A stretch of DNA of 64,000 nt from a virus. The notes under the pieces were generated by a model. It made no database searches, was not told the origin of the DNA, and was given only the letters and a program-made list of their open reading frames with translations. The DNA lies in IMG/VR virus record IMGVR_UViG_3300046535_001489, positions 6,715 to 70,714 of that record; one strand, written 5' to 3'. Position 1 is the stretch's first letter. Every line of letters starts with the position of its first letter. This document shows, piece by piece, positions 37 through 21,277 of this stretch. The position numbers were made by a program, and so were the translations under genes.

Positions 37-567
37 ATGGCTGCACATACACCTCCAGACCAGTTACTGCTAAACCTAACCCCTGCTCAAGTAGCCTATA
101 TGGCTGGGATATTTGATGGGGAAGGCTGTGTATTAATATCCCGAGTAAAGGAAAAAACAGCCTATCGAGTAGAATGTATGATCTCCAATACCGATCTAAC
201 TTTGCTGCAGACTATGCAGCTATGGTGTAATGGCATTGGATATATACGCGCAGGTAACTATAAAGCAGGACAAACACGACCATGCTATACGTGGCGAATG
301 AGTAGTCGCCGTGCTGCCTTATTTATGTCTATTATTAGACCATATTGTATTGTTAAAGCTAATCAAATAGATATAGCTATCCAGCTTAGCAATAGGATTA
401 GAGACTATGATGGCCGTAAGGTGCGGAAGCCAGGACAAACCAGAAATAAGGGAATTCCAGAAGAAGAGCTAGCCTTTAGAGACAACCTATTTTGCAGCTT
501 AAAGGAGCTACGTCGTGTCATTCCAACAGTATACCTTGGCACAAATGCGTGCCATGCTGCAAACTAA
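37..567 (+). CDS. Free-standing LAGLIDADG homing endonuclease
   Basis: AYMAGIFDGEGCV LAGLIDADG helix, then ISNTD..LL and IRPYCIVKANQ motifs. AT-richer than its neighbours. TAATG coupling to the upstream gene. Confidence 0.9.
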   Translation: MAAHTPPDQLLLNLTPAQVAYMAGIFDGEGCVLISRVKEKTAYRVECMISNTDLTLLQTMQLWCNGIGYIRAGNYKAGQTRPCYTWRMSSRRAALFMSIIRPYCIVKANQIDIAIQLSNRIRDYDGRKVRKPGQTRNKGIPEEELAFRDNLFCSLKELRRVIPTVYLGTNACHAAN

Positions 568-2759: not shown

Positions 2760-5700
2760 TGGCTCAAGAAAGTAAATCGACCCTCCCTGTTACAGCTTCG
2801 GATTTCAAAGCTCCGTTCCAGACGGCGGTGACGCGCTATGGGGTTGAAGGTCTCAACATCACTGACGCCATCGACTTTGTAAAACCCAATGAGATGACGC
2901 GGATGGTGAATGTCACTCATAGGGTAGATGGGGGTGTGGAGCCGAGGCCGGGGCTGACTGCACTGGCAACAGGCGGGACGAACCACCATAGCATTAGGCT
3001 GCTCGACGGGCATGGAGTGTATGACCCCAATACCATCCATGGTGTCGATACGACGGTTATGGTTGGGCAGGCTGGGGCGCTTACGCAAGTTGATACGGGG
3101 TATTCTGGTGAGCCGTTGAGCCTTGTTCCCTTCCATCCTGTGCTCAACGGCGTGCCCTGGATGTACATCGGCGACACTGAACAGATGTCAAAGGTGCGAG
3201 AGGATGGGACGGTGCTGCAGGTGGGCATGGTGCCGCCTGGGCTGATTGCTACGACAGTTCTCGGCACGCTCAACAAAACCCCCATCGCCAACTTCCTCAC
3301 GGATGGCACTGCAGCAGCATCGTGGGCCGCAACAGCTGGTAAGAGCATCCCTGATAGCCTTAATGGGAGCATTGTTGCGACGGCTAATCCTACAGTCACT
3401 GGATTCTTTCCAGGGCCGGGAGGCGGTGCTACGCCAGTTAACTTTGGCTTTGGGTTGCCTACTGGCACGGCAATGGGGCAGGGGAGCGCACAGGATTTTT
3501 GGAATCTTTGGGGGGTAGCTGCGGGGAGAGATTTGAGCGTCGTTGGCGCTGAGCCGATGACCGACGACGACTACATCCATGTCTGGATACGGATGCAGAA
3601 CACTGCAGCGGTGAAGGAGATCCGCATCTACTTTGTCGTCAGTGCAAGCTTTGACCCAACGAAGTTGCCGGGGCAGGCTCCAACGACTGGTGGGGTGGTA
3701 CCAAATGCTGACGCCTATTGGGTGAGTATTCAGCCCCCAGACCTTTCGGGGGCGCTGAACGCGATTCGATTGGCTCCCGATGCGGCGTTGGCGCATTTTA
3801 ATCAGCAAATTCTAGATGCTGCAGCTGCAGGAGCACCGCTGGTGAGTGGGTCGCAACCGGTGATTCCAGTGATTGCTACGGGACCGGGTTCCGGCACATG
3901 GAATGAATATGCTTCAGTTGGGTTGCCGCTGCGACGGGGGGATTTTCAGCGCATTGGAGCCACCGCTGGACGAGACTGGAGCACCATCACAGGCATTATC
4001 ATCTATGCTGTAGGGTCGAAAGGGACAGGGTTTAGTAACATCGGATTCCAGCTCGCTGATATGTATGCTATGGGCGGCAGCGGGCCAGATAGCGGCGATG
4101 CCACGAGTACCCCGTATGATTATGTCTATACCCATTATGATTTATGGACGGGAGCTGAGAGCAACCCACAGCCGGGGGTAGATGCTGAAGATGATTTGAG
4201 TAATTCAGTGCCCATTGACGCGTTGCGGCGCAGCATCGTTGTCACACCAGGGGAGAGTTATCATAGCGCGCATGTGGTGCAGAGGTTCTATCGGCGGGGC
4301 GGGACGCTGCCGACGGATTGGTTTTTCGTAGGGCAGAACACAGCTGACGGAGCGGCGTTTATTGATACCATCACTGACACTGAAGCAGTGGCGGCTGGCA
4401 GTGTCGAAACTGACAACGACATGCCGGTATCTACAGTAGACCCTGATGGCGTCACGATTCTCCATCAGCCGCTGAGTTCTCTGTGGGGGCCTGTGGAAGG
4501 GTTTCTCATGGGGTGTGGCGACCCATACCGGCCAGGGTTTATTTACTTCAGCAAGCCGGGGAACCCTGATAGTTGGCCTCCGCAGAACCGCACTGAGGTG
4601 TGTTCGTCGTCGGAGCAATTGCTGCAGGGGGTGATGTATGGCGGGCAGGCGTTTGTGTTTAGTCAGGAACAAATGTATGCGCTGTATCCTAATCTGAGTG
4701 GCGATGTACCTGGGGTCACGTCACTCGTCACCCAATGCAAGAAAGGACTCGTCAATGGCTGCAGGTGGGGCGCGGCTGTGGGTATTGGTGGCATTGTTTT
4801 TATTGCGAATGATGGTATTTATCGTACAACGGGCGGTCCTCCGGAGTGGTTGAGTAAGAAGATTGATCCGCTGTTCAGGGGGCAGAGTAAGAATGGCATG
4901 CTGCCAATTGATTTCGACCAGCCGACGAAGCTGCGGATTGAAATCTACCAGAATGAGCTGTATTTTCTCTATCGAGATAGTAACAACGACACCCAATGTT
5001 TAGTCTATAGTCTCATCTATCAGTTCTGGCGGCAGTATAATTCGACCAAGCCTATTTCTTGCATGTATGCAGTGGAAGGGTCGTCAACGGATGTGCTGCA
5101 GGTAGGAGGCGGAGCTGGAGACGAATGGACGTTTGGTGGTGTTAGCGATGATGGGAATTCCATTGCCTGCAGCATGCGGGGTGGGGCGATTTTCTTCGAC
5201 CACCCGCGTGAAGAGAAGCGGCTCGGGGATCAGATTATCGATATGGATTCTGATGGGGTAACGATTACTCTGCAGAATTACTATAACTACGAAACAGTTG
5301 TGCCAGATCCGATTGCGTTGCCAACGTCGTCGGATCGCGGGCGGGTAGTATCTGATTCGTTCGGCCAGACTCCAGTGCGAGTGATTAATATCTCATCTGA
5401 TTTGAGTTGGTCGTCGGCTACGAATACTCCAAAAGTATTCTATCTCGGGACGTCAGCGATTATTGAGCCGGACCTCACGAAGGATCGCGTCACGCAGTGG
5501 GATGACCTTGGACAAGGTGATGAGGTTTATCTAACTGGCATTACTCTCGACGTAGACACTGGCGGCGAAGATAAAGGCGTAGTGTTTGAGGTCGATTATC
5601 AAGGAGTAATATCGACTGCCTACACTGCAGTAGTCAATGCTAATGGGCGGCATAAGGTTCGGTTCAGTTGGCCAGCCGTGCAGGCGAACATGGTGCGGAT

Positions 5701-6742
5701 TCGCCCTGTGGACCCAGACTGCCGCTTCTGGATTCTCTACCAGGCGCAGTGGATTCATCAGCCTGAGCCGCCTCGGATTGCTGCGTGGGATTCTTACTTC
5801 GAGAATGGATGGGATCAGTATTACACTGGGCTCGATCTGTACTGCGACACGTTTGGCCGCGATAAAACTATTGCGGTGTATGTCGATGAGGTGCTGGTTA
5901 AGACTGAGACGATTAATACTAATGGCAGGTTGGTCAGACACATTACCCTCCCGTGGGGCAGGGGCCATGTCTTCCATTTCATTGCAACTGATAGCAATGA
6001 AGGGTTGCTCTATGGGCATCGTTGGCAGCTAGACCCTGAGCCGAGCGAGCAGACAAACTGGAATCAGAACTTTACCATCGAGGGCACAGAGGCAGGGAAG
6101 TATCTGAAGGCTATTGTATTTCAGTGTGACACCTTCGGGCAGGATAAGACAGTCACTGTCGAATGTGATGGGGTTGTCGTTGAAATTCTGACGATTAACA
6201 CCAATGGCCGAAAGGTTGTGCAGAAAGCCTTCCCGCAGCATTATGGGAATGTGTTTAGGGTGTATCCGACCGATGATAAGTTGAGTCGGTTGTATACACT
6301 CTGGTGGGTGTTTGACCAGGAGCCTCTGGCACTAGACCGCTGGGAGACGCAAGAGATTGACCATCGGATTGCTGGGTGGCATTATCCCACATATGGAAGT
6401 ATTACCGTGCGGAGTGCTTCGGATGTTACGCTTGTGGTGACGGCATATAACCAAATCGGTGAGCCGACGGTGCGGTCATATGTTATCCCGGCAACGAATG
6501 GGCTAAAGCAGAAATGCTTCGTACCGTTCCAGGCAGTAAAGGGGATTTTGTTCAAGTATGTATTGACATCTGATGATCCATTTTGGCTCTACCGAGAAGA
6601 GTCAGTGATGATGGTAAGGGTGTGGGGGACAAGTAATACAGAAGCTGTACATGTGTTTGGCAATGATGACATTGATGCCACGAGGGTGATGACGAAGCCA
6701 TCGTTGGCTGCGGCAAGGAGTGGTGGGGGAACTGGTGCCTAA
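2759..6742 (+). CDS. Tail nozzle / tail tubular protein B-like (P22 gp10-like) with extra beta domains
   Basis: 1327 aa and beta-rich. IYFSKPGNPDSWP and FIANDGIY...LSKKIDPLF propeller motifs. Follows the adaptors. Confidence 0.7.
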   Translation: MAQESKSTLPVTASDFKAPFQTAVTRYGVEGLNITDAIDFVKPNEMTRMVNVTHRVDGGVEPRPGLTALATGGTNHHSIRLLDGHGVYDPNTIHGVDTTVMVGQAGALTQVDTGYSGEPLSLVPFHPVLNGVPWMYIGDTEQMSKVREDGTVLQVGMVPPGLIATTVLGTLNKTPIANFLTDGTAAASWAATAGKSIPDSLNGSIVATANPTVTGFFPGPGGGATPVNFGFGLPTGTAMGQGSAQDFWNLWGVAAGRDLSVVGAEPMTDDDYIHVWIRMQNTAAVKEIRIYFVVSASFDPTKLPGQAPTTGGVVPNADAYWVSIQPPDLSGALNAIRLAPDAALAHFNQQILDAAAAGAPLVSGSQPVIPVIATGPGSGTWNEYASVGLPLRRGDFQRIGATAGRDWSTITGIIIYAVGSKGTGFSNIGFQLADMYAMGGSGPDSGDATSTPYDYVYTHYDLWTGAESNPQPGVDAEDDLSNSVPIDALRRSIVVTPGESYHSAHVVQRFYRRGGTLPTDWFFVGQNTADGAAFIDTITDTEAVAAGSVETDNDMPVSTVDPDGVTILHQPLSSLWGPVEGFLMGCGDPYRPGFIYFSKPGNPDSWPPQNRTEVCSSSEQLLQGVMYGGQAFVFSQEQMYALYPNLSGDVPGVTSLVTQCKKGLVNGCRWGAAVGIGGIVFIANDGIYRTTGGPPEWLSKKIDPLFRGQSKNGMLPIDFDQPTKLRIEIYQNELYFLYRDSNNDTQCLVYSLIYQFWRQYNSTKPISCMYAVEGSSTDVLQVGGGAGDEWTFGGVSDDGNSIACSMRGGAIFFDHPREEKRLGDQIIDMDSDGVTITLQNYYNYETVVPDPIALPTSSDRGRVVSDSFGQTPVRVINISSDLSWSSATNTPKVFYLGTSAIIEPDLTKDRVTQWDDLGQGDEVYLTGITLDVDTGGEDKGVVFEVDYQGVISTAYTAVVNANGRHKVRFSWPAVQANMVRIRPVDPDCRFWILYQAQWIHQPEPPRIAAWDSYFENGWDQYYTGLDLYCDTFGRDKTIAVYVDEVLVKTETINTNGRLVRHITLPWGRGHVFHFIATDSNEGLLYGHRWQLDPEPSEQTNWNQNFTIEGTEAGKYLKAIVFQCDTFGQDKTVTVECDGVVVEILTINTNGRKVVQKAFPQHYGNVFRVYPTDDKLSRLYTLWWVFDQEPLALDRWETQEIDHRIAGWHYPTYGSITVRSASDVTLVVTAYNQIGEPTVRSYVIPATNGLKQKCFVPFQAVKGILFKYVLTSDDPFWLYREESVMMVRVWGTSNTEAVHVFGNDDIDATRVMTKPSLAAARSGGGTGA

Positions 6743-16061: not shown

Positions 16062-16282
16062 TGAGCTTCCCAGTAGGCATTGTTGCTCAAATAGCTACAT
16101 CCACACCAGCGTTGAATAGAGTTCGTATGCATCCCCCGCATCGCTGTTTGAGTGAGGTCCATGCGAGTGCAGTAGTCCCAGCTGCCGTCTGCTCGCTCCC
16201 AAACCTCATAGAGAAGGTGTTGAGGATAGTTTGGGCCATAGATATCGTCGCAGTGGCACCAGACGAGGTGTAGGTAGCTCAT
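16058..16282 (-). CDS. Hypothetical protein
   Basis: ATGA overlap with the polymerase stop codon. Confidence 0.45.
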   Translation of the reverse strand: MSYLHLVWCHCDDIYGPNYPQHLLYEVWERADGSWDYCTRMDLTQTAMRGMHTNSIQRWCGCSYLSNNAYWEAQ

Positions 16283-18207
16283 TTCATCTCTCCCCAGCAA
16301 ACTCCACGCTTACTCTCTGTTCCTATATGCAAGAATTGGCCCAACCCCCAGGAGGGGTCCAATGGCAGCTCCTCCACGGGCTTCTCCATTTCAAACTTCA
16401 TTGTCTCGTCGCAGTAGTCAGCTTGGTCGATCGGGCATTCGGCAAAGTTGCTATCGTGGATGAGTAGGCGTAGCCATTGGGCGATGGTGTCAGGGTAGTT
16501 GTAGTAGAGACGCTTCAGGGCCTTTTTGATGATAAAGGCTGCATCGCTTTGAGGACCGGCAGCAATGAGGCGCTTGGCATCGTCACCGTAATCCCAATCC
16601 CATTTGCCTTGCTTCTTGCTCCACGCCAGTACGCTGTAGAATCGCTGAATGTGCCCAAAGGAGTTTTTGTACACACAGCTTTTATCAACCTGTAAGCAGA
16701 GGCGCTCGTGCCACGCAGGGATTTCTGGGAAGACTTCGTAATAGTCTGCTCGCCCTCTAGCAGCATCCTTAATACGATGAAAGACTGTAGGATGCTGTTC
16801 ACTTAGCTCTTTAGGGCCAATGCGGTAATTGCTGCTATGAACTATGATCTTCGCCACAGTACGTTCATTCGGGTAGGTCTTCTTAATCTGCTTGAGGTAA
16901 GCCCCAAGGTCAGCATCACTCCACGCGAGGTTAGGGAGGTCAGCAGCTGTGAATCGGCCTTGCCTGTAGAGGTTATAAGCTGTCAAATAGCTGTGGACAT
17001 CGATGGCTGCAAGCCGGATGTAGTCTTTGCTGCCACAATGGTAGCCTACGAGCTTGGCTTCGATGCCGCTGAAGTCTCGTTCGATGAAGATGTGGCCCTG
17101 CTGAGCTACAAAAAGCATCTTCACGAGCTTCTGAATATCCGAATCGTCGCCACGAGGGATGTTCTGCAGATTAGGGCTGACCATACTAGAGCGGAGAGTG
17201 CTAGGGGTATGTCTAAAAATTCCCCTGACACGCCCATCGCGTCCAACAGGAAATCCACCAGCGATAGCGCCGGAAGCCACATCATACCACCCAATATAGC
17301 GCGAGCCGATGGTGCTAAGTTCACGTTCTTCTAAAACCCATTCGTAGAATTTGTGGTCGGGGTGACGGCCTATGAGTTTCGACACCGCCTTTTCATCGCA
17401 TGTAACTTTGCGGTCGGCCCCTTTGCCGGTGATGATGAGGGGGTGTTTGAAGTATTGTTGATAACGCTGTATCCCCTTTGTGCTAGCCTTAAACGGCTCC
17501 AGCCTAGCCCACCGCTTTTCACCTTCTACAACTTCGACGCTGGAGGCTCCAGCGCATCGATTTGTTTCTGTGCGAACTTCAATACCTTCGCTACATGGAT
17601 TGTTGCTTCGCTTTCGGGTAGCGGTATGTTTAGCTGTCCACTTGGCTCCACAAACGGAGCATGTGCGGGCCAGCTTCGATTTATAATGAGCCTTTTTTGG
17701 ATCTCTTTCCGCACATCTAGAGCATTCTTGATGTGAGACGGCTCCCAAGGTGATTTCCGTGAGTCCACTAACATCTGCTGGGGTTTTGACGTATCCATTG
17801 GGTGGAGAATAGACCCGAATAGCGTTTGGAACCACTGCTTCAATTTTAGCCCTAACTTCATGACGTTTCTCTATAAGTTGTTTGGACGATTCGACTCGGC
17901 GGGCGAGGTCAACGGGCATGCCTGCTCGGGTCATGGCTGAGAAGACTGGATCGAGTTCACAGATGAATTCGTTGTAGATGTTCCACATGCCGTGTTGCTT
18001 GAGGAGTTTCATGATGCCCCGAGCGTTTTGGCCTGCTGTGGAGGCATCTACGGCGTTGTAGTAGGCTGGGGAGCTGCCAGATTCATTCTTCCACATGCGC
18101 TGGCCGTGGCAGATGAAGGGGGTGACAAAGCCCAATGACTTCTTGAGGTCGCTGTTGAGGATATGCCACATATCCATGCCATCGTGGTTGGTGCCGTTAA
18201 TGATCAT
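16279..18207 (-). CDS. Family A DNA polymerase, C-terminal part (second half of the 3'-5' exonuclease plus the polymerase domain)
   Basis: HDGMDMWH and YNAVD (ExoIII); SPNLQNIPR; motif A DFSGIEAK; motif B RTVAKIIVHSSNY; motif C LIHDS. Confidence 0.92.
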   Translation of the reverse strand: MIINGTNHDGMDMWHILNSDLKKSLGFVTPFICHGQRMWKNESGSSPAYYNAVDASTAGQNARGIMKLLKQHGMWNIYNEFICELDPVFSAMTRAGMPVDLARRVESSKQLIEKRHEVRAKIEAVVPNAIRVYSPPNGYVKTPADVSGLTEITLGAVSHQECSRCAERDPKKAHYKSKLARTCSVCGAKWTAKHTATRKRSNNPCSEGIEVRTETNRCAGASSVEVVEGEKRWARLEPFKASTKGIQRYQQYFKHPLIITGKGADRKVTCDEKAVSKLIGRHPDHKFYEWVLEERELSTIGSRYIGWYDVASGAIAGGFPVGRDGRVRGIFRHTPSTLRSSMVSPNLQNIPRGDDSDIQKLVKMLFVAQQGHIFIERDFSGIEAKLVGYHCGSKDYIRLAAIDVHSYLTAYNLYRQGRFTAADLPNLAWSDADLGAYLKQIKKTYPNERTVAKIIVHSSNYRIGPKELSEQHPTVFHRIKDAARGRADYYEVFPEIPAWHERLCLQVDKSCVYKNSFGHIQRFYSVLAWSKKQGKWDWDYGDDAKRLIAAGPQSDAAFIIKKALKRLYYNYPDTIAQWLRLLIHDSNFAECPIDQADYCDETMKFEMEKPVEELPLDPSWGLGQFLHIGTESKRGVCWGEMK

Positions 18208-18326
18208 AATTGTTTTATCTTACGCATATGCCCACCACACTTAGTACACCGAGGTCCAGCTCCCCCTCCAGAAGGCCCTGCTAATGATTTAGTAACTATA
18301 GTCCCGCAATTATCGCATTTCCACAT
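18204..18326 (-). CDS. 40-aa zinc-ribbon micro-protein inserted inside the polymerase gene (not in the ORF track)
   Basis: Translates as MWKCDNCGTIVTKSLAGPSGGGAGPRCTKCGGHMRKIKQL*. TAATG overlap upstream and ATGA overlap downstream. Confidence 0.75.
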   Translation of the reverse strand: MWKCDNCGTIVTKSLAGPSGGGAGPRCTKCGGHMRKIKQL

Positions 18327-19258
18327 TATTTACTCGCCAATATCCTAGGAATATCATATGAACCATTCCACCACAGTTTATCACAAGGATGGCTCAAAAG
18401 TTTCTCATGAATTGAGTGATAAGGCCCACCCCAAGGGATAGACATACCTCTATAGTCCATGTAGCTATAACCACAACGCAAAATGATGTAATCGCTCCCA
18501 TCTTCAAGGTCTAGCTCCTCTTCGTCTGAGCCTTTTTGGGGGGTTTCGATATCTACTGAAAGAAATAAACTATTGTCTGCCATCCAAGCCTGCTCAAACT
18601 CGACAGCCCATGCCATAGCAGCCATAGGAGTAGGATCCAGCAGATAACTGCCTTCAATATATTCATAGCCGTCTCTTGCAATCTCCGTGCCGCGTTGGAT
18701 ATCGTGAATGAGGACTTGAGCCCAGGCGGTTTTTCCGCGCATGACAAAGCTAGGGTGTACCGTTGGCAGCACCCATGTTTTATACTTTGCACTCCAGAAC
18801 ACATAGCCCCGTGCGCCTTTGTGCTTTTTGGAGTCGAGGAGTCCTACGCCGTGTTGGTTGGCAAACTCAGGGATCAAACGACGAAACGCAGTAACACCCA
18901 AAGCAACAATACAGCGAGGCTGAAAGTCAGCAATACACCTGTCAAGGTTAGGGCTACAGTAATCAATAGCATCTTGAGCATAGGATTCACCGGCTAATTT
19001 GTTGTTTGGAGGCCTGCAGAAAAGCACGTTGGCAATTTTGAAGTCATCTCTATTTAGTCCTCCACGTTGCATCATGCGGTCGAGAGCTTGGCCAGCACGG
19101 CCTTGGAAGGGTAGGCCAACTGGCACCTCATCAGCCCCGAGAGCCTCACCTACTAAAAGTGTGCCGTTGGCTCCTGTACCACTCACTTCCATAAAGCCTA
19201 TGCCGTCGCCATAAAGACTACAGCCTCTGCAGGAATTGGGTTTGACTAGAAGGGGCAT
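18326..19258 (-). CDS. Family A DNA polymerase, N-terminal part: family-4 uracil-DNA glycosylase domain plus the first half of the 3'-5' exonuclease
   Basis: CRGC, VGEALG, PFQGRAG, NVLFCRPPNN and HPS (UDG-4). Then VDIET (ExoI) and WNGSYD (ExoII) just before the stop. Confidence 0.9.
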   Translation of the reverse strand: MPLLVKPNSCRGCSLYGDGIGFMEVSGTGANGTLLVGEALGADEVPVGLPFQGRAGQALDRMMQRGGLNRDDFKIANVLFCRPPNNKLAGESYAQDAIDYCSPNLDRCIADFQPRCIVALGVTAFRRLIPEFANQHGVGLLDSKKHKGARGYVFWSAKYKTWVLPTVHPSFVMRGKTAWAQVLIHDIQRGTEIARDGYEYIEGSYLLDPTPMAAMAWAVEFEQAWMADNSLFLSVDIETPQKGSDEEELDLEDGSDYIILRCGYSYMDYRGMSIPWGGPYHSIHEKLLSHPCDKLWWNGSYDIPRILASK

Positions 19259-20650: not shown

Positions 20651-21277
20651 TCATGACAGCTCACACCCTTCTGTCGGGCAGCTACAACTCTTCATATAAT
20701 ACTCTTTTCTCTTTAACTGTCTGCATGCTCTACATTGCCGCTTTCCACTAGGATGCCAGTAGATATTATCTCCTACCAATTTATGGCCTCGTTGACATTC
20801 TGCTCTGGTAGGTCGTAAAGGTCTGGGGGCATCTACCGAAAGACCTTTATTAATGCGTCGTCTAATCGTCCATTCAGGAATATTGATATCTCTAGATAAT
20901 CTAGCTAAAGTAGTTGCAGTATCTTTATAGTTAACCCGTCGATTATGTCGTGTATTATTAGCTTGCTCTTCTCTAGTAGCCCAACGGCAATTTTCTGGGC
21001 CATAGGGGCCGTCGTTATCTATTCGTTCAATAGATAGACCGTTAGATGGCCCCATATCTTCATAGAAGGTTTTGAACGAATTAACCCATTCAGGACAAAT
21101 AGCTATACCGCGCCCTCCATAATGCTTATAATTGGTGCTCTTAGGACGGAGGCAACGGTCTTTCATTAGTTGCCAAATTCTATATTCACGGTATTCAGCT
21201 AATTTACTCACAGTTTTCAGCTCTACAGGAACAATGGCTCTTAAAGCATGCCGAACGGCACCGCACGTTGTCTTCAA
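20651..21277 (-). CDS. HNH homing endonuclease with a C-terminal Cys/His zinc motif
   Basis: W..MK.RC, YGGRGI.IC.EW, SIERIDNDGPYGPENCRWAT and C.RGH...RQCRAC. Start uncertain. Confidence 0.88.
   Translation of the reverse strand: MKTTCGAVRHALRAIVPVELKTVSKLAEYREYRIWQLMKDRCLRPKSTNYKHYGGRGIAICPEWVNSFKTFYEDMGPSNGLSIERIDNDGPYGPENCRWATREEQANNTRHNRRVNYKDTATTLARLSRDINIPEWTIRRRINKGLSVDAPRPLRPTRAECQRGHKLVGDNIYWHPSGKRQCRACRQLKRKEYYMKSCSCPTEGCELS

Follow-up and report, generated by a model that had tools for sequence, protein, structure and literature searches.

How does a proofreading DNA polymerase come to be cut in two inside its own exonuclease domain, and what is the small gene in the cut doing there? 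The question is raised by 64,000 nucleotides (nt) of viral DNA, positions 6,715 to 70,714 of IMG/VR record IMGVR_UViG_3300046535_001489, a stretch that we call the window. The phage record as a whole comprises 70,714 bases, has direct terminal repeats at its ends, and is rated complete. On the minus strand of the window, three successive open reading frames (ORFs) occupy three different frames, each in the −1 frame of the one before. The first, the N-half (18326–19258; 310 amino acids, aa), encodes a domain resembling the uracil-DNA glycosylases (UDGs) of family 4 and the exonuclease motifs ExoI and ExoII, and ends in …WWNGSYDIPRILASK, that is, …PRILASK, followed by a TAA stop (18328–18326). 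The last, the Pol-half (16279–18207; 642 aa), begins MIINGTNHDGMDMWH (MIINGTNHDG), and encodes ExoIII, an internal CxxC-x17-CxxC element and a family A (PolA) polymerase domain. Between these halves is a gap of 121 nt, occupied by a 40-aa micro-ORF (18204–18326; MWKCDNCG…PRCTKCGG…KQL) with the zinc-ribbon pattern CxxC-x19-CxxC. We think it quite probable that the enzyme is a UDG-PolA in two pieces with a composite proofreading site, that the micro-gene is cargo lodged in a split that already existed, and that fission has occurred repeatedly at this one codon of a surface loop.

The three genes are packed tightly. The N-half stop shares one base with the micro-ORF ATG (18326–18324) in the sequence TAATG (18324–18328), and the Pol-half ATG (18207–18205) overlaps the micro-ORF stop, TGA (18206–18204), in the sequence ATGA (18204–18207). 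A preliminary description of the locus had given these positions and overlaps, together with a pair of matched AAA codons to which we return below, and all of them are correct in a check of the ORFs.

Most of the 120 relatives listed for the Pol-half are single proteins of 896–978 aa with both the UDG and the PolA Pfam domains, so that homologues are indeed continuous across the split point, a matter the preliminary description had left to be checked. The alignment is exact in length: continuous …WWNSSYDVPRILSQG-ITINGTSHDG… faces split …WWNGSYDIPRILASK, stop, MIINGTNHDG…, the Pol-half Met standing in place of a hydrophobic residue. Together, the two polymerase ORFs cover the uninterrupted homologue, with nothing gained or lost at the cut. 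Pfam identifies UDG (PF03167, E 5.3e-23) in the N-half and DNA_pol_A (PF00476, E 7.4e-22) in the Pol-half; PHROGs assigns the latter to phrog_17, DNA polymerase (E 2e-36), and the family profile matches solved family-4 UDGs (E 1e-24).

The position of the cut follows from the motifs and from a model. We take the D-x-E, N-x3-D and Y-x3-D of this family to be ExoI, ExoII and ExoIII of the DEDDy exonucleases, going by the pattern definitions. Their six residues (D210, E212, N272, D276, Y334 and D338 in the numbering of P0005, a continuous homologue) are invariant in 101 continuous sequences. In the window, D236 and E238 of ExoI (18553–18545, minus strand) and N298…D302 of ExoII (18367–18353) are on the N-half and are invariant in nine split N-halves; Y50…D54 of ExoIII (18060–18046) is on the Pol-half and is invariant in 20 Pol-halves or full-length proteins. 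So, too, are D378, E383, K453, Y461, H584 and D585, presumably polymerase motifs A, B and C, to go by the motif names. Sequence profiles of the family match no solved exonuclease domain, and Pfam returns no exonuclease hit; support for the fold comes from the AlphaFold model of P0005 (pLDDT 92.9, pTM 0.85), which aligns with the Klenow fragment along its whole length (TM by target 0.72–0.76 over ~800 columns). Taq is also matched. The cut falls between G284 and A285 of this model, in a loop (283–290) that joins the ExoII helix (273–282) to the next strand (291–293). By motif and by model alike, then, the polymerase is divided inside its 3′–5′ exonuclease domain, in an exposed surface loop between ExoII and ExoIII. 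Since ExoI and ExoII are on one half and ExoIII on the other, the active site would have to be built from two polypeptides, as the preliminary description had supposed. The UDG-like domain, the PolA domain and the DEDDy motifs of a UDG-PolA are thus all present, but not on one polypeptide.

Could the gene simply be broken, either a decaying pseudogene or a product of misassembly or sequencing error, with the micro-ORF no more than a chance frame? The sole point for this is the interruption itself, and much stands against it. Words of the 64-kb stretch occur in ten metagenome runs, under ten studies, that are labeled as soil or rhizosphere, and contigs from four of these were aligned to the stretch. 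Three contigs, from runs listed under different studies, reproduce the junctions with zero differences: one of 1062 nt (X1; 17727–18788), from a run that may be the source sample, bridges both; one of 225 nt (X2; 18253–18477) bridges the TAATG between the N-half and the micro-ORF; and one of 151 nt (X3; 18115–18265) bridges the ATGA between the micro-ORF and the Pol-half. No joints or indels were reported in the aligned contigs, and the assembly, for which the preliminary description had wanted read support, is unchanged at its junctions in three runs. Moreover, every catalytic residue of the exonuclease and polymerase is retained, the micro-ORF has homologues at E 2e-9, and the split is common to relatives down to 70% identity.

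Selection speaks to the same effect. The closest relative with DNA among the matches listed, locus L020 (85% identical), is split in the same way, and comparison of these two sequences, which are the only two in the comparison, gives a dN/dS of 0.05 for the last 43 codons of the N-half (dS 2.96), 0.09 for codons 2–111 of the Pol-half (dS 0.62) and 0.08 for codons 112–180 (dS 2.62). Low dN/dS (0.05–0.09) on both flanks, with dS saturated, shows strong purifying selection on either side of the cut in the split enzyme. The gap, then, holds an intact gene and not a product of decay, as had been proposed at the outset: the micro-ORF is conserved, and the genes that flank it are under selection. For practical purposes we regard the broken-gene or artefact explanation as refuted.

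The same comparison reveals a discontinuity. The first ~110 codons of the Pol-half (17878–18204, minus strand) form a patch of low dS between window and L020 and of high GC content at third codon positions (GC3). GC3 is 0.33 in the last 30 codons of the N-half, 0.30 in the micro-ORF, 0.6–0.8 in the first ~100 codons of the Pol-half, and 0.33 thereafter; across 36 long ORFs the median is 0.56. A younger patch that adjoins the junction points to recombination with a breakpoint there.

What L020 carries in its gap goes to the heart of the matter. Its N-half ends …PRILAAK and its Pol-half begins MIINGTNHDG, at the same cut, but the gap is 355 nt long and contains a 119-aa ORF with an ATGA overlap at either end. 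The two gaps have no similarity (local score 19, against a shuffle mean of 16.9 and maximum of 27). The L020 cargo is a full-length member of phrog_9995 (E 7e-30), a family of unassigned function with homologues in 88 phage records; no copy of it occurs in the genome of the window phage. In a third split locus, L019, other small ORFs precede the Pol-half, with a 4-nt GTGA overlap. Because L020 has the identical cut around an unrelated gene, the cut is older than the micro-gene, and older than the divergence of the window from L020, the cargo having been exchanged since. The micro-ORF would then have neither created the split nor be required for it, for the split predates it and L020 holds another gene in its place. 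The initial suggestion that the 40-aa ORF might itself be a gene-splitting element does not survive this: the L020 cut has the same terminal residues with an unrelated 119-aa gene between them, and other lineages are cut at the same codon.

If we read the locus correctly, three proteins would be translated from one message of an operon-like string. From the N-half would come the UDG-like domain and the carboxylates of ExoI and ExoII; from the Pol-half, the Tyr and Asp of ExoIII and the whole of the polymerase domain. The two would reassemble non-covalently, across what would be a large interface for the N-half, and the proofreading site of the resulting enzyme would be composite. The stop/start overlaps are ordinary operon integration, and no special device, because such packing is the default in this genome: 33 of its 62 long ORFs have an overlapping stop/start context, and 29 of the 62 carry a Shine-Dalgarno-like motif. 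No such motif occurs within 25 nt upstream of the Pol-half ATG, so the Pol-half is probably translated by reinitiation, its ribosomes being those that have just terminated on the micro-ORF. The micro-protein would be made together with the polymerase as an independent zinc-binding passenger of the replication module, and would not be needed for assembly, since L020 does without it.

The micro-protein itself belongs, as its relatives show, to a genuine, if rare, protein family. A phmmer search of 1.84 billion representatives yielded four matches at E ≤ 0.001. Two of these, P0165 (53 aa) and P0166 (50 aa), are full-length homologues with 61% identity (E 1.9e-9 and 7.4e-8); the remaining two match only in part, at a zinc knuckle, and belong to proteins that exceed 1300 aa. 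Nineteen of the 40 columns are invariant with the homologues, including all four Cys and a GP-x-GGG-x-GPRC loop, and the protein is a putative zinc binder. Pfam finds zinc-ribbon matches in it below curated cut-offs only. The AlphaFold model (pLDDT 77.6) has short beta strands at both knuckles; Foldseek finds no significant neighbor for it (best E 1.2), the top matches all being generic zinc modules, and the ESM Atlas returns only unnamed small zinc-ribbon clusters, at 0.91. Neither Pfam, PHROGs nor the ESM Atlas assigns it to a nuclease, DNA-binding or other family. Further relatives were not forthcoming. A word-based search found none, and missed the micro-protein itself likewise; a scan of IMG/VR found none; a scan of GTDB genomes found just two zinc ribbons of a generic sort, one in a HemY-like C-terminus, the other in a 66-aa ORF, neither being a relative; and tblastn against 50,697 phage records matched neither the micro-protein nor P0166, in a search whose low-complexity filter may mask the Gly run. 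One match of the micro-protein profile ran through the TGA into the Pol-half, and was judged to be a chance Thr/Pro-rich resemblance.

Might the micro-protein be more than a passenger: a dedicated third subunit or regulator that clamps the new termini, or acts as a gate on the composite exonuclease site, its place in the gap being retained so that its expression keeps step with that of the halves? Its conservation as a protein, its tight coupling to both halves, and the want of a ribosome-binding motif belonging to the Pol-half itself are all in keeping with this, and S-TIP37-like cyanophages and OM43 phages likewise have a small gene downstream of that for the exonuclease subunit (PMC12695635, PMC10580990). 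Yet L020, at 85% identity, has the same cut without the micro-gene, no copy of which occurs elsewhere in the phage to supply the protein from another place; coupling by overlap is this genome's default style; and the micro-protein is unrelated to the zinc-ribbon insertion of the polymerase, the CxxC-x17-CxxC element of the Pol-half (hhalign probability 0.5%). A prediction of the complex of N-half, Pol-half and micro-protein, in which the micro-protein was treated as the partner and no controls were included, gave a score of 0.00 and a mark of 0.32, which weighs on neither side. We consider a subunit role improbable.

The preliminary description raised another possibility, namely that a full-length polymerase is made after all, by recoding. 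Ribosomes might bypass 112 nt from one AAA codon to another, as in T4 gene 60, or might shift twice into the −1 frame and so read the zinc ribbon into the exonuclease domain. The matched codons are real. AAA stands at 18331–18329, directly before the TAA of the N-half, and again, in frame with the Pol-half, at 18216–18214; and each ORF is, as noted, in the −1 frame of its predecessor. In T4 gene 60, bypassing depends upon a take-off stem-loop and a short non-coding gap, and the signals are conserved in relatives. Here there is no stable take-off hairpin, the RNA of the gap folding worse than chance (z +2.4; equalled or bettered by 198 of 200 shuffles), and no Rfam match at E ≤ 1 in 17700–18800. 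The gap is itself a conserved gene, its product occurring elsewhere as a free-standing protein of 50–53 aa. The 355-nt gap of L020 has no landing codon, and a TAA lies two codons before the L020 Pol-half ATG. A bypass product would be three residues longer in this loop, which does not vary in length among close homologues. Frameshifting fares no better: neither junction has a slippery heptamer, and the frame of the micro-ORF has a TAA two codons before its ATG. The frame of the Pol-half has a TAA at 18222–18220. Bypassing of the gene-60 type thus finds no support, and recoding of either kind strikes us as extremely unlikely. Splicing was considered as well. An intron was rejected on the Rfam and folding results for the same region, and 121 nt is too short for one of group I or group II; an intein was rejected because the insert is out of frame and ends in a stop.

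If the split is older than its cargo, how often has it arisen? The Pol-half begins at the identical alignment column in the window (P0001), in P0003 (70% identity), P0025 (57%) and P0086 (37%), in L020 (85%), and, with a GTG start, in L019 (46%); P0002 (74%) was called 7 residues before this common column, and P0004 (63%) 10 residues after. From the other side, 8 of 44 matches to the N-half (P0121–P0128) end within one residue of the cut, in …ILASK (four of them), …LASED, …ILAAT, …ILADE and …ILAD; P0129 extends 28 residues beyond it. P0003 and P0123, and P0025 and P0128, are probably pairs of Pol-half and N-half, since their contigs are equal in size (66,573 and 59,019, respectively). At the level of DNA, at least 13 loci of the family, the window included, run across the junction. 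Three are split (the window, L020 and L019) and ten are continuous (L002–L010 and L018). A profile scan of IMG/VR produced nine family loci, all continuous at the cut site, and a search with the degenerate pattern M-x-I-N-G…WH[VI]LN produced two more IMG/VR loci, both continuous, with a native Met. Neither the single-protein scan of IMG/VR nor the genome scan found the DNA context of split relatives. The preliminary description had named one finding that would count against it, that homologues are all split here regardless of the insert. This holds in part: not all are split, but several lineages are, and with other inserts.

Phylogeny argues against a single origin. The Pol-half tree was built from 57 rows (P0001–P0037, 16 of P0039–P0101, and four locus translations; P0038 was left out) once the junction's first 12 columns had been removed. 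On it, the split label takes four changes, all forced by starred branches. On an independent tree of the N-half (54 rows) it takes six, of which three are forced. The approximately unbiased (AU) test rejects a single clade of all eight split rows (p 2.8e-42), and rejects also a clade of the six nearer split rows (p 9e-5), a group named after the tree had been seen. The same codon has been split in several separate lineages.

Why this codon? The residue at the cut is a native Met in much of the distant family (…AQMPING…), and is I, V, L, A or T in nearer relatives; the codon is hence mostly one base change from a start codon. Three reasons, which do not exclude one another, may account for the recurrence: the loop is predicted to be exposed, the codon is Met or close to a start codon, and the gene bears a load of mobile elements, whose targeting of it should raise recombination there. 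The same loop codon would be used for fission repeatedly because it is solvent-exposed and its residue is Met or hydrophobic. Once fission had occurred, the new intergenic point would behave as any phage gene boundary does, and would collect and exchange small genes by recombination.

Several points weigh against this account of a reassembled enzyme, a passenger gene and a recurrent fission. Five of the split lineages (P0002, P0003, P0004, P0025/P0128 and P0086) are known as gene-called proteins only; the starts of P0004 and P0002 are displaced from the common column in opposite directions; and the N-half of L019 lies off the end of its contig. The polyphyly seen in the protein trees could also reflect re-fusions or the lateral passage, by recombination, of a short segment at the junction, and the young dS patch beside the junction shows that such recombination does occur here. 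P0165 and P0166 are singletons on contigs of ~2.1 kb, so that the micro-protein family might yet prove to be regularly linked to polymerase genes. That the halves bind one another, and that the exonuclease is active, are deductions.

Recurrence at one codon also invites a different interpretation, that the gap is the footprint of a site-specific, homing-type element that has invaded the ExoII–ExoIII loop again and again, the zinc-ribbon ORF being its degraded or minimal cargo. The same codon has been hit in at least four lineages; mobile elements target this polymerase family (an intein in P0097, an Endonuclease VII gene in L007), and the window phage has an HNH gene; and GC3 and dS change sharply at the junction. 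Against this, the intervening ORF is not a homing endonuclease of the mobE or seg type by Pfam or PHROGs: the micro-protein has no nuclease motif or match, and the L020 cargo is phrog_9995. Repeats around the micro-ORF cassette are short, chance-level matches, and none, direct or inverted, bounds 18204–18328. There is no second copy in the genome, and the cargos of the window and L020 are unrelated. The N-half ends differ by lineage (K, ED, T, DE, D), so separate events, or long drift, fit better than one traveling cassette, and the recurrence is explained, without any targeting, by an exposed loop whose codon natively specifies Met or a hydrophobic residue. We doubt, in consequence, that a homing element is responsible. 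A bolder idea is that the codon just past the ExoII helix is a ‘fission slot’ under active renewal, into which small gene cassettes are repeatedly recombined, possibly started by endonucleases or inteins, and which guarantees its class of passengers, the micro-protein among them, expression at replication time and at the level of the polymerase. In its boldest form, the micro-protein would bind the reassembled enzyme and tune its proofreading. This is a long shot, in our view.

Split phage polymerases are already known, and what appears to be unusual about the two-piece UDG-PolA is the combination of a cut inside one active site with recurrence at one loop codon. One published case among family A enzymes is that of T7-type cyanophages like S-SBP1 and S-TIP37 (clade B), in which exonuclease and polymerase are separate proteins; it was reported as the first such fission in PolAs, and arose through a frameshift of 1 nt, the ORFs overlapping (Czernecki et al. 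2023, PMC10201439). In many S-TIP37-like phages the small gene nblA lies downstream of the exonuclease gene (PMC12695635). There, as here, two adjacent genes together equal an uninterrupted relative, and the new termini are predicted to be solvent-exposed. The cyanophage cut is at the exonuclease/polymerase border, and is described for one clade, whereas that of the window is between ExoII and ExoIII of a UDG-PolA, has a gene-bearing gap of 121 nt, and recurs in several lineages.

The closest analogue of the window and L020, with one split point and different inserts in related phages, is provided by the gene 43A/43B split of Aeromonas phages 25 and 44RR. In 44RR, the spacer is untranslated; in phage 25 it contains a seg-type endonuclease gene, suggested to have invaded a gene already split, and gp43A and gp43B co-purify and are active (Petrov et al. 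2010, PMC2988022). Those enzymes belong to family B, with one homing endonuclease insert and no report of recurrence across lineages; neither cargo is a nuclease here. The preliminary description had likened the window to phage Aeh1, whose nrdA gene is split by mobE. The halves of that enzyme reassemble, with the help of sequences derived from the element (PMC3045599, PMC2988022). The likeness is that an essential enzyme is cut in a functionally critical region, and that two polypeptides do reassemble in Aeh1; the difference is that the Aeh1 insert is a free-standing homing endonuclease, whereas here there is no nuclease, and no evidence of the insert contributing to assembly. Lastly, phages MEP401 and MEP402 of OM43 have a PolA split by a small ORF of unknown function, conserved in related metagenomic genomes, and the authors left it open whether an intron is involved (PMC10580990). 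The arrangement, two ORFs for a family A polymerase and a single small gene between them, is that of the window. The MEP401/MEP402 cut, however, is inside the polymerase domain, leaving the exonuclease and N-terminal part of the polymerase on one piece and its C-terminal part on the other, whereas ours is inside the exonuclease domain, with an intron excluded as far as Rfam and folding tell. In open-access main texts we found no account of a cut separating ExoII from ExoIII, of a UDG-PolA in split form, or of splits recurring at a single codon.

We regard the locus as of moderate relevance, to polymerase biochemistry and to the manner in which fission creates sites of gene gain, and do not see in it a novel kind of gene-splitting element. 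In the published family A case the cut separates domains; in this one the two-metal proofreading site itself would be divided over two chains, a ready-made natural design for a two-piece proofreading polymerase. It also offers an example of gene fission becoming a new site of gene gain in phage genomes, and a small set of micro-proteins, predicted to be expressed with the replisome, that would be worth testing.

Some lesser observations attach to the cargos. In Rhizobium phage RHph_Y5A (L052), a homologue of phrog_9995 (3501–3860), unannotated in GenBank, lies directly upstream of the DNA polymerase gene and overlaps it by 2 nt, a hint that the association of this family with polymerase genes recurs. 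In L019, a 51-aa Cys/His-rich ORF (110–265, plus strand) stands before the Pol-half. Pfam returns nothing for it, and similarity to the micro-protein was not detected; it may be another small metal-binding passenger.

The polymerase genes of this family are disturbed in other places, too. In the window, third-position GC alternates over the locus (16279–19258, minus strand) between 0.30 and 0.80 in blocks of ~100 codons, which suggests a mosaic from repeated recombination between phages of different codon usage. A free-standing gene for an HNH endonuclease (20651–21277, minus strand; phrog_3377, E 1.3e-47; no Pfam hit) lies 1.4 kb upstream of the start of the polymerase operon, and is a possible source of double-strand breaks, and of mosaicism, in the polymerase genes of relatives. 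P0097 (812 aa) has a canonical intein inside ExoII, at nine residues upstream of the split codon (WWNG, then the intein, C…HN, then SYD), and an intein domain is among the precomputed Pfam domains of the protein. In L007 (2562–5680), a gene for a 154-aa Endonuclease VII-type protein (E 7.7e-20) splits the polymerase domain into pieces of 580 and 341 aa, and marks a second hotspot, near Pol-half residue 307–314, where there are also gaps of 450 nt (L009) and 170 nt (L010). In many more distant relatives (P0130–P0158, ~420–540 aa) the N-terminal piece ends after ExoIII, or after the internal CxxC…CxxC insertion, often in a Lys/Pro-rich tail; by these, the family is fragmented at several further positions.

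Two last features concern metal binding and the glycosylase. The CxxC-x17-CxxC insertion of the Pol-half occupies residues ~160–190 (17640–17730, minus strand), where it separates the exonuclease part from the polymerase part; throughout the family its Cys are invariant. In the N-half (18329–19258, minus strand), C10, C13, C81 and C101 are invariant in all nine split N-halves, a pattern that fits the iron-sulfur cluster ligands of family-4 UDGs; the usual GEAPG motif is GEALG in this protein.

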